From: Elsinoe ampelina
Lineage: Eukaryota
NCBI GenBank assembly: GCA_010093995.1
Contig: ML992501.1
Location: 392,227 to 456,226, forward strand
Direction of reading: 5' to 3'
DNA length: 64,000 nt
Both the position numbers and the translations under genes were made by a program. The notes beneath the pieces are model-generated. The model ran no database searches, was not told where the DNA came from, and saw only the letters and a program-made list of their open reading frames with translations. Positions 2,793-5,163 of this stretch are shown here, one piece after another; the stretch's first letter is position 1; each line of letters starts with the position of its first letter.

Positions 2793-2975
2793 ATTGGCGC
2801 GGGCGTAGTAGTTGGGAAGGCTTGGTGGGATAGATAGAGATAGAGCTTTATGAAATGTTGACGATTTCATGAGGCAAGGCTATCTGTCGTTAGATTCGTT
2901 GAGAGAGCTGGTAGGTCAGCTAGATCGCCTTTTTGCAGGACATAGCCTAAGGCTGCGCTGCAGGGCTCCAAGCCG

Positions 2976-3341
2976 TCAGAACCCCGGGGTGTTCCGGAGG
3001 TCTACCACCAAGAAGCCAGCCTGCATAGCCCATAGGAGCAGGTACTGCTCGTACACAGCCAGCCCAGAAAAGAGTGCATATCCAGAGAAGGTTTGCATAA
3101 TATTGTAGAGACAATCGTCTTCCCTTCGCTCTGCTGGGACATTCGGATGGTCGTGGCACGCTCTCCCTGCTTCGAAGAGCTGTGTACTGCCCCGAAGGAC
3201 GGTATACCCTACTGCACTCGCTGCCGCCCGTTGAATGGTAATGCCTCCATGACCTCGGTAGAGCCAGATACTTTTTTGGACTGGGCCTGCGAAGGTGTAG
3301 AGGAACAGGAACACCGTCAAAGCACGGAAAATCGTTGCCAT
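2976..3341 (-). CDS. 121-aa predicted secreted protein; truncated paralog of the N-terminal half of 4363..5163 (functional short form or pseudogene)
   Basis: Signal-peptide-like MATIFRALTVFLFLYTFA. Manual alignment to residues 41-93 of 4363..5163 gives 22 identities in 54 columns, including both Cys and EDDCxYNxMQxxxGYxLF. Weak similarity continues in the +1 frame past the stop, to 2867. Confidence 0.7.
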   Translation of the reverse strand: MATIFRALTVFLFLYTFAGPVQKSIWLYRGHGGITIQRAAASAVGYTVLRGSTQLFEAGRACHDHPNVPAERREDDCLYNIMQTFSGYALFSGLAVYEQYLLLWAMQAGFLVVDLRNTPGF

Positions 3342-4362
3342 GAGTAATGTCGGGTGGTCTGCTTGGAATGAAGTGGCGGTGTGAATTGTTTCTTACTGTA
3401 GCCAAATCTCTGCGGGCGTAATGGTGAGTAGCGGAAGATTCGATTCAGTGAGAATCTTGCAGCGCTAAATGCGACAGTCATGTTCCCGGCACATCAGAGC
3501 AAATGTGCTACCCGACTCCTTGCAATGATAAGACGAGGTATGTCTTTCAGAATTTGGTTGCGGCACAGTCAGAGTTATAACCAGACGTAGGCAGCGCCAC
3601 TTGGCGCCAATGCAACTACCAATATCGTGGACAGAGTTTTTCCCTTTGCTAAGCGAGATGACCGGAAATCTGATGCTAATGGCTTCGCTTACATTATTGT
3701 AGAGAAACGTGGATGTGTGTCGATTTGATCCTTCGTGATCTGACGCATCAGATTCAAGATCTCGAATTCGCCACCCAAGTACCATGCATGTTTCAAGCCT
3801 AAGAACATTGCTGAATGGTGATCAAATACAATACTATGACCACGACCTGCGACCTGCGACGGCAACTTATGAGATAACAAATCCCTTGGTGTGCGCAGCT
3901 GAGAGCTTGGCTTCACTACTGCTCGTTACCTCTAGGCTACAGCGGACCACAGAGAGCACTAGACATGCTCAAACAGCCCATTGTGGGAGCATAGTTCCAC
4001 TGCCAGCGCTCACCAAGACGGATAAATTGTAAATGCCAATGGGCTAGGAGAGCCACGAGCACGCACGCGGTGGTTCAGCCTCGATAGTACGAGGGTGCAA
4101 GCCAACCACAGTCAAGTAGTATGAGCTGAGCTGAACTTCAACAACGGTAAGAAGGTGATTGCCTCACCGATGTGGCAAAGTGATGGAGCCATTGAGGGCT
4201 CCAACAGCGTATTAGAAGTGGAAACAGTCATGCCGCAGTGTTGACATAAATATCGCGCTGTAAGACCTCGCTCAGTCCTATTCTTCGTCGCACAGTTTAC
4301 TCTTCTTCTTATCGGATCTTGCACGACGCTACTCACCATCTCGACACTGCTTATCCACCAGT

Positions 4363-5163
4363 ATGCATTTAGTATATCTTTCTACGTTGCTCGGACTGGC
4401 TGCAGTGCCTTCGCTTGCCGCGCCCGCGTCCTCTGCCGATTTGGCGAAGAGACAACAGGATCGGACCAACTTCTCCTTCCGAAGAGCCGCTGGAGGAGTC
4501 ATAGGCTACAGTTGGTGGCAGGGTAATGCTCAGCTTTGGGATGTAAGAATGACGTGCTTCGGCCACAGACAAGGGACGGACAAGAAAGAAGACGATTGCT
4601 TCTACAACGCCATGCAGATGTCCTTAGGATACACCTTATTCACCCTCGTCGTTGCGACTGATAATCCTGCTGTCACTGCACTCATGCAGGGTTTCACTGC
4701 ATTTGGCAACTGGCAGAGCCCCCCGGCTTTCGATGGACCGACGACGAGGCAACTCAAGCCTAAGGAGGAGCTTGGGCCATTGCCGGAGTACTATGACAGA
4801 CTCTACGACTCCATCGCTGCTGAGATGAACAACACCCAGGAAGAAAACCAACTGCAGCAGTGCTCCGGCCATCATCCGATGTACAGCCCGCACGAATGGT
4901 TCCGGTGGCCTCGACACAACGGCATCAAGACTCAATGCGTTGGCGGCTGCGATGATCGACACATCGACTGGAATGCCATCGAAGGATATGCGGATAATGT
5001 GGCCTCCGAGTTGATCAGGACTGGCAACCTCAATGCACAGTATACCATATTCAACAGCGCCAACAGAGTCGTTGCGAGATGCATGAGCACGGTGCAGACC
5101 AATCCAGCCAATGTCTGTCCAGAACATGTCACTGGCTCAGGCTGCTTCGTTTCACCGTGGTGA
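4363..5163 (+). CDS. 266-aa secreted, Cys-containing preproprotein; candidate K1-like killer toxin/effector
   Basis: Single ORF with a signal peptide (MHLVYLSTLLGLAAVPSLA), a pro-peptide ending in a Kex2-type LAKR, 8 Cys (65, 79, 167, 192, 196, 240, 252, 261), a hydrophobic stretch at ~80-114 and sequons NFS and NNT. The toxin label is inference. Confidence 0.85.
   Translation: MHLVYLSTLLGLAAVPSLAAPASSADLAKRQQDRTNFSFRRAAGGVIGYSWWQGNAQLWDVRMTCFGHRQGTDKKEDDCFYNAMQMSLGYTLFTLVVATDNPAVTALMQGFTAFGNWQSPPAFDGPTTRQLKPKEELGPLPEYYDRLYDSIAAEMNNTQEENQLQQCSGHHPMYSPHEWFRWPRHNGIKTQCVGGCDDRHIDWNAIEGYADNVASELIRTGNLNAQYTIFNSANRVVARCMSTVQTNPANVCPEHVTGSGCFVSPW

Follow-up and report, generated by a model that had tools for sequence, protein, structure and literature searches.

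A gene for a candidate killer-toxin-like precursor and its N-module-only paralogue in Elsinoe ampelina

Introduction

The window analysed here, a stretch of 64,000 nucleotides from the filamentous ascomycete Elsinoe ampelina (contig ML992501.1, positions 392,227 to 456,226 of the forward strand), carries two homologous open reading frames (ORFs) that diverge from a common spacer: a long ORF (4363..5163, plus strand; 266 amino acids and a stop codon), which encodes a full-length member of a small protein family (protein P0001), and a short ORF (2976..3341, minus strand; 121 amino acids and a stop codon), which encodes an N-module-only, or 'alpha-only', paralogue. Judging from the sequences, the two copies are sisters that arose by local duplication, and the short one is quite probably still, or was until recently, a functional coding gene. 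The evidence tips slightly towards a family that is killer-toxin-like in fold and build, and a protective role of the short product towards that of its neighbour is put forward here as a tentative reading.

How the producers of the killer toxins K1 and K2 protect themselves is still unresolved, the N-terminal part of the precursor being sufficient for protection (PMC13442484). Immunity to K1 is conferred by the prepro region, alpha and 31 amino acids of gamma, with beta being dispensable and both cysteines of alpha being required (PMC13442484). The premise of an initial annotation of the window, namely that K1 self-immunity stems from the alpha-containing precursor and does not need beta, agrees with this account and with that of PMC7888664. 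The annotation went on to suggest that an alpha-only paralogue could act as a dedicated immunity factor, and considered such an arrangement not to have been described, which is too strong: in the K1-like KKT genes of Saccharomycotina yeasts truncation preferentially leaves alpha and a little of gamma, and an immunity role has already been proposed for these alpha-only genes (Fredericks et al. 2021, PMC7888664). For K1-like genes, the idea that alpha-only paralogues serve as protectors is therefore in print. What is new at the present locus is a Pezizomycotina family, uncurated so far, that is built along the same general lines, with a half-copy that adjoins its parent, and the apparent origin of such half-copies on two separate occasions followed by long-term preservation of the frame.

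Results

Homology of the two ORFs

Both ORFs were found where the initial annotation had placed them, diverging from an intergenic region of about 1 kb that measures 1021 bp (3342..4362). Their products are identical at 26 of 87 aligned residues, with a single one-residue gap (BLASTP, E = 2e-12), and the match is also recovered by tblastn at E = 4e-10 in a search space consisting of the whole window and the metagenome contig L001 described below; a hand recount on the translations reproduced the core identity of 22/54 given earlier. At the DNA level the inverted repeat between the copies is limited to a 44-nt coding core (arms at 3079..3122 and 4588..4631, 73% complementary), which specifies the elements EDDC-YN-MQ-GY.

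The homologous module of the short protein comprises residues 35-121 (2979..3239, minus strand). It is preceded by a hydrophobic N-terminus (residues 1-19, 3285..3341, minus strand) with a Kyte-Doolittle (KD) value of 1.59, which is signal-like by its hydrophobicity, and contains Cys62 (3156..3158, minus strand) and Cys77 (3111..3113, minus strand), which align to the sole invariant Cys columns of the family N module, as well as the GY-x-LF motif. Residues 95-113 are also hydrophobic (KD 1.24), while the equivalent stretch of the long protein stays under the mark of 1.2. The short copy thus keeps the signal-like N-terminus, the two cysteines and the hydrophobic helix attributed to it at the outset, ends near the end of the N module as had been noted, and carries no dibasic site at the position at which the long protein has LAKR/Q.

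In a maximum-likelihood tree of the family the short ORF groups with the neighbouring long copy (SH-aLRT/UFBoot 96.7/84), the branch of the short copy measuring 1.43 and that of the long copy 0.27. Neither the spacer nor the sequence downstream of the short ORF gave a match to a decayed C module when searched by tblastn with 13 family proteins. The possibility that an intron extends the short ORF was rejected, the RNA contigs showing no splice within 1330..3538 and only 183 nt lying between the stop codons of the short ORF and the adjacent P450 gene. A word-index protein search returned only the long protein itself for the long protein and none of eight candidates for the short ORF; with alignment A1 as the query it returned two proteins among 8000 scored candidates.

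Age of the short copy and selection

Over 86 aligned codons the two copies share 49% nucleotide identity (0.56, 0.55 and 0.37 at codon positions 1, 2 and 3, respectively) and the synonymous divergence (dS) is saturated. Repeat-induced point mutation (RIP) was rejected as the cause of this divergence, as transitions and transversions are about equally frequent (64/67) and both genes have negative RIP indices; with RIP excluded, the low identity and the saturated dS indicate that the duplication is old. Nevertheless, the short frame is open from the ATG to codon 121, its alignment with the long copy requiring a single in-frame gap, and Gly48, Cys65 and Cys79 (numbering of the long protein), which are invariant in the N module of the family, are all present. 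Neutral simulation gave a probability of at most 0.0008 for the occurrence of neither a stop codon nor a frameshift at 0.5 substitutions per site, and of about zero above this value. A freely decaying duplicate is unlikely given a frame that has remained open despite saturated silent sites and the retention of the invariant residues, and the decaying inverted duplicate that had been offered as the alternative is disfavoured on these grounds.

The dN/dS ratio (omega), which the initial annotation had singled out as a check, is estimated to be below 1 on the short branch, from a nonsynonymous divergence (dN) of 0.47 and a per-branch dS of at least about 0.65 derived from third-position differences; this estimate is informal, and the constraint that it suggests is relaxed. 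Codon usage is non-discriminating, the log-odds of the short frame being 0.176 (the best of six frames) and that of a frame antisense to the long gene being 0.169.

A second pair in an Aureobasidium-like contig

The single-protein query P0020 led to L001, an Aureobasidium-like metagenome contig with a pair of the same composition; a scan of metagenomes with alignment A3 yielded 229 pattern-matching stretches, of which none was confirmed. The full-length gene of L001 specifies a protein that matches P0020 at 100% identity and, over residues 1-240, a protein of Aureobasidium pullulans at 98.75%. Located 519 nt upstream on the same strand is an N-module-only ORF of 119 amino acids (1605..1964 of the contig), which is 53% identical to residues 1-115 of its full-length neighbour (E = 1e-31), ends about 20 residues past the hydrophobic helix and forms a singleton cluster in the protein collection, with gene calls from three assemblies. 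The pairing recurs in the very small sample of two loci whose flanks could be read, an N-module-only ORF lying beside a full-length gene both in the window and in L001.

In the same tree the 119-residue ORF groups with its own neighbour (94.4/99). As each short copy groups with the long gene next to it, the two are likely to derive from separate duplications, unless gene conversion has homogenized each pair. The L001 pair is also ancient, with a third-position identity of 0.44-0.46 and an NG86 dS of 2.2-2.4, and the frame of 119 codons is intact. At 3203..3207 of L001 the full-length gene has five extra bases with respect to P0020 and P0002, and its straight reading, P0019, is frameshifted and ends at 3253; this difference could correspond to a strain-specific break, to an assembly error or to a stretch that is skipped by the gene models.

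The protein family of the long gene

A phmmer search of 1.84 billion representative proteins with the long protein yielded 17 matches with E values of 1e-3 or less, the query included, of which 13 were taken as the family (P0002-P0012, P0014 and P0015), P0012 being a 110-residue C-module fragment. P0013, a repeat protein, was regarded as a spurious match, and P0016 and P0017, long proteins matched over short stretches only, were left outside the family. The members with names are hypothetical proteins of Aureobasidium pullulans, E. ampelina, Elsinoe fawcettii, Thozetella sp. and Conoideocrella luteorostrata. Some of these fungi are plant pathogens or biocontrol agents. A further E. ampelina member, P0006 (225 amino acids), is represented by a model from which the signal region and the final Cys motif are missing. 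Its contig measures 3,306,712 bases, as does that of the long protein of the window, and it is probably encoded by a paralogue on the same chromosome.

The alignment reveals a common build, consisting of a hydrophobic N-terminus, a propeptide, an N module, a variable linker with NxS/T and a C module with six cysteines. The propeptide closes with [KRAITE]-R, after which come Q (replaced by A, G or D in three members) and the sequence x-x-R-x-N-F. The N module is characterized by an invariant G-Y, by two invariant cysteines 14 residues apart, both present in all 13 full-length members, and by a hydrophobic G-Y-x-L-F helix, while the last cysteine of the C module lies 2-5 residues from the C-terminus across the family. 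The linker carries KR or RR in nine of the 13 full-length members, the others being the long protein of the window, P0005, P0006 and P0015.

In the long protein, the signal-like hydrophobic N-terminus and the propeptide ending in LAKR/Q occupy residues 1-30 (4363..4452, plus strand), with the only KR of the protein at residues 29-30, and the family motif R-Q-x-x-R-x-N-F is matched. These are followed on the same strand by the N ('alpha-like') module (residues 31-123, 4453..4731), which contains Cys65, Cys79 and the hydrophobic helix 76-97, by the linker ('gamma-like'; residues 124-166, 4732..4860), with one NxT and neither KR nor RR, and by the C ('beta-like') module (residues 167-266, 4861..5160), the last of whose six cysteines is five residues before the end.

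No Pfam family was detected in any of the 15 sequences searched at E values up to 10, the only rows being five single-member chance matches, and DUF5341, a domain present in only some toxins of the SMK/K2 superfamily, was likewise absent from all 15. Among the sequences of the PDB there was one chance row (E = 0.38) for a single protein and none for the profile. No publication describing this family appeared among the titles and abstract openings listed by full-text literature searches, and additional homologues, truncated or from filamentous fungi, may be contained in the supplements of the papers cited here. In the ESM Atlas the long protein resembles three unnamed ascomycete clusters (0.81-0.86) and the short ORF resembles bacterial LVIVD clusters (0.84-0.87, with low recognition); both were taken as leads only and were not used.

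Predicted fold and killer-toxin likeness

An AlphaFold2 (AF2) model of the long protein, computed from an alignment of 14 rows, has a predicted TM-score (pTM) of 0.65, with predicted local distance difference test (pLDDT) values of 82-92 for both modules (83-92 for the N module) and below 50 for the linker. When the model was compared with 48,161 chains using VIA-align, with a noise bar at Z = 8, the best structural rows were small antifungal or lectin alpha/beta sandwiches, namely Gnk2 (Z = 6.4; 106 residues, model range 42..253), DUF26 ectodomains (Z = 5.2-5.9), the mushroom protein Y3 (Z = 5.8) and the mushroom lectin LDL (Z = 5.3), and matches were also obtained to Zt-KP4 (8acx; Z = 4.6-4.7), the beta chain of the SMK toxin (1kvd_B; Z = 4.3, root-mean-square deviation 2.7 Å over 75/77 residues, model range 183..260) and KP4 (1kpt_B; Z = 3.3). 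Single-domain sandwiches of 94-112 residues align over both modules (model range 42..253), which suggests that the N and C modules together form one joint sandwich, as in the SMK toxin. A Foldseek search of BFVD placed the K45 killer preprotoxin at rank 2 (E = 0.02, TM 0.23) and the Ustilago maydis virus P1 protein at rank 9; K1 was not among the best 50 rows. The fold matches of the model form a consistent theme, short of proof.

SMK, K2, K1, K66, K45, KHS1 and KP4 are considered to form one structural superfamily, and the marks of this superfamily include an alpha-gamma-beta build, a hydrophobic helix in alpha and an intra-alpha disulfide (PMC13404059). At the sequence level the family displays the corresponding series of signal, alpha, putatively removable gamma and beta modules, and the long protein has a hydrophobic helix (76-97) with a Cys pair just before it, which would form a disulfide. 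The family resembles the superfamily in its build, in its Kex2-type sites (nine of 13 members), in the hydrophobic helix and the alpha Cys pair, in a cysteine near the C-terminus of beta and, tentatively, in the predicted joint alpha/beta sandwich, and differs from it in the absence of sequence similarity and of DUF5341, in Z scores under the noise bar and in its filamentous ascomycete hosts. As for K1 itself, a membership of its family would be conjectural, the phmmer matches that bear names all being hypothetical proteins of Elsinoe, Aureobasidium, Thozetella and Conoideocrella.

Transcription

RNA-derived contig sets from three runs (X1, X2 and X6), which carry no strand information, were matched to the window at 100% identity. 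The GT..AG joints 1282>1330 and 5850>5901 are present in the contigs, so all three runs hold RNA. An unspliced piece of an X1 contig (1330..3538) spans the short ORF in full together with the 3' portion of the P450 gene, and an unspliced X2 piece (2643..3526, depth 6.4) also covers the short ORF. The ends of these contigs, which come from different studies, are no more than 12 nt apart (3526/3538) and lie about 40 nt downstream of a TATAA in the spacer (at 3576 on the plus strand, read at 3579 on the minus strand), a coincidence that favours a transcription start on the minus strand. The spacer also contains ATAAATA, at 4246.

The long gene is covered by an unspliced X1 contig (4486..5501) at a depth of 166.8, compared with 120-1492 for its neighbours in this run, while its depth is 0 in X2 and 2-3 in X6. 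As to the co-expression of the two genes that the initial annotation had proposed to check, the strand-less contigs cover both genes in X1, only the short region in X2 and part of each in X6, and co-regulation would be conjectural. In no run do RNA contigs reach 4363..4485, the opening 123 nt of the long ORF, or its leader, which could result from an assembly break, a filter or 5' bias; the upstream start is supported by the homology within the family. Contigs of low depth are also found within the spacer in X1 (3589..3830, depth 5.3; 3985..4145, depth 3.2).

Discussion

Possible roles of the short gene

The long gene would encode a secreted precursor, built like the alpha-gamma-beta preprotoxins of the SMK/K2/K1/KP4 type, with a signal peptide and a propeptide cut after R and before Q. 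Its N module, with one disulfide pair, would bury a hydrophobic helix, and a flexible linker would lead to the C module, which is rich in cysteines and would complete a single alpha/beta sandwich with the N module. The short gene would be an old, local partial duplicate that retained only the signal peptide and the N module, lost the propeptide site, gained a more hydrophobic tail and was kept as a coding gene under relaxed purifying selection. The most likely role of its product, suggested by analogy with the immunity provided by the prepro-alpha-(gamma) part of K1 and with the truncated KKT genes, would be that of a partner which protects against the full-length product, or modulates it, within the secretory pathway or at the membrane. 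Taken as a whole, with the immunity-like role included, this proposal is possible but doubtful.

A number of observations weigh against it. On the structural side, all VIA-align matches are below the noise bar, Foldseek searches of the PDB and BFVD returned nothing at E = 1e-3 or better, and the AF2 model of the short protein alone has a pLDDT of 65, a pTM of 0.37 and a different secondary structure. With a linker devoid of dibasic sites, the long protein may remain a single uncut chain, and the family has neither a known activity for any member nor a Pfam family. The RNA over the short ORF is joined in one contig with the convergent P450 gene and is possibly its 3' untranslated region (UTR); the X6 contig ends at 3113, within the short ORF; and the X2 contigs cover the region of the short ORF but leave the long gene at a depth of 0, so that, if this signal belongs to the short gene, the latter is expressed without the long one. 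A leader starting at about 3526-3538 would carry two upstream ATGs (3317..3494, minus strand), at 3494 (a nine-codon ORF) and at 3481 (a 54-codon ORF that overlaps the main ATG of the short ORF out of frame and has A at -3), one of them in a better context than the main ATG. The short copy has evolved about three times faster than the long one (three-point branch dN 0.47 versus 0.15); in L001 the imbalance is larger (0.29 versus 0.016), and the short copy there has lost the first invariant cysteine together with about 5-7 residues between the Cys positions. The exact short-ORF sequence is absent from a collection of 15 billion proteins, no N-module-only relative was found in the protein searches, and the two loci at which the pair has been seen are a very small sample.

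The short gene may be functional and yet independent of its neighbour, encoding a stand-alone membrane-active peptide or a cell-surface factor with no protective link, which is a rather improbable explanation that draws on the same selection arguments (saturated silent sites, an open frame and no RIP). Such a role would fit the long branch and the lost propeptide motif of the short copy, its tail at 95-113, which is more hydrophobic than that of the long protein, the seemingly uncoupled expression in X2 and the toxicity of the alpha domains of K1 homologues when produced alone, as described in bioRxiv 10.1101/2024.10.11.617966. On the other hand, no stand-alone N-module family emerged from the protein searches, and at both readable loci the half-copy adjoins its own parent after separate duplications, an adjacency that is more easily explained by a functional link, or else by the plain mechanics of local duplication. 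It is unlikely that the short ORF is a non-functional relic, i.e. an untranslated partial inverted duplicate whose RNA is P450 3' UTR or read-through. The ORF is unannotated, in that its exact sequence is missing from the protein collection, its RNA contig is continuous with the P450 gene at a similar depth, and the upstream ATGs, the threefold faster evolution, a codon-usage score on a par with the one for a frame antisense to the long gene and the lost cysteine of the L001 counterpart all point in this direction; against them stand the start codon, the 121-codon frame, the hydrophobic N-terminus and the full set of invariant residues, which have outlasted the saturation of silent sites (P at most 0.0008), the far stronger conservation of codon positions 1 and 2 than of position 3, and a second, independent copy with 119 intact codons. 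The relic would also imply a P450 3' UTR of 746 nt, which is long for a fungus.

The short protein could also be an alternative subunit that pairs with a C module of the family in a heterodimer, diversifying rather than neutralizing the activity. The sandwiches of 94-112 residues that span both modules suggest that an N module needs a C-module partner, the short protein alone gives a low-confidence model with different secondary structure, and P0006 is a further family member in E. ampelina; however, the long protein has no dibasic site with which to free its C module, and the pairing would be purely conjectural. This explanation is very improbable. A prediction of the complex between residues 20-121 of the short protein and residues 160-266 of the long protein scored 0.00 against a mark of 0.34, in a run without controls, and counts neither for nor against such a pairing.

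Relation to known killer systems

A protective partner born from the toxin gene itself, as proposed for the short copy, would have several partial precedents. The KKT truncations are likewise chromosomal paralogues of an alpha-gamma-beta preprotoxin in which alpha and little more is kept (PMC7888664), although they belong to another protein family, to which no sequence link was found here. They are mostly subtelomeric, are described as truncations or pseudogenes with premature stop codons, and are not described as adjoining a full-length gene, whereas the copies in the window and in L001 adjoin their parents and are separate local duplications, ancient and with open frames. As in the immunity-conferring part of K1, the short ORF of the window has a signal-like N-terminus, both cysteines and a stop shortly past the alpha-like module, but in K1 the toxin and the immunity derive from a single ORF on a double-stranded RNA satellite, while two nuclear genes are present here, with no propeptide site in the short ORF of the window and a single cysteine in the L001 copy.

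The zymocin-like toxins of Pezizomycotina are encoded by nuclear genes with an adjacent candidate immunity gene (bioRxiv 10.1101/2024.10.25.620242; PMC13442484), an arrangement similar to that of the window; they are anticodon nucleases with immunity proteins unrelated to the toxin, whereas the candidate protector described here is a partial paralogue. In the engineered split K2 pair an N-terminal piece of the preprotoxin also protects when produced from its own ORF (PMC13442484), but that pair is man-made and its protective piece is a 54-residue pre-region instead of an alpha module.

It is quite unlikely, but would be of consequence, that filamentous ascomycetes carry chromosomal two-gene killer systems in which the protector was repeatedly born from the alpha module of the toxin gene and kept adjacent to it. 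If true, K1-type 'precursor immunity' would become a separable pair of toxin gene and immunity gene that is open to genetics, and the SMK/K2/K1/KP4 superfamily would be extended into Dothideomycetes and Sordariomycetes. Natural alpha-only genes beside their parents would offer a clean genetic handle on killer-toxin self-protection, the more so if they originated twice and stayed open over a long period, and would draw attention to an unannotated family of toxin-like proteins that are likely to be secreted. Should the short ORF be untranslated, it would be merely an old partial duplicate, and the family itself would be a modest novelty.

Flanking genes and other features of the window

The pair is flanked by a gene for a P450-reductase fusion (stop at 2792) and by a 2-oxo-acid dehydrogenase E1-alpha-like gene (from about 5766), both named from their translations only. 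The flanking genes contain GT..AG introns at 1283..1329 (47 nt) and 5851..5900 (50 nt), which were confirmed by spliced RNA contigs. Within a DEAD-box helicase-like gene the contigs of all three RNA runs break at 7867..7907, with loose ends that differ from the window; this region is GC-rich and of low complexity, and may be variable or repeated. The RIP indices of the whole window are positive (TpA/ApT 1.35; (CpA+TpG)/(ApC+GpT) 0.85), and an AT-rich block occupies 36000..64000, with a GC content of 26-42% compared with 51-61% in the first 36 kb, which suggests that this block, about 31 kb from the gene pair, is a RIP-degraded repeat region.

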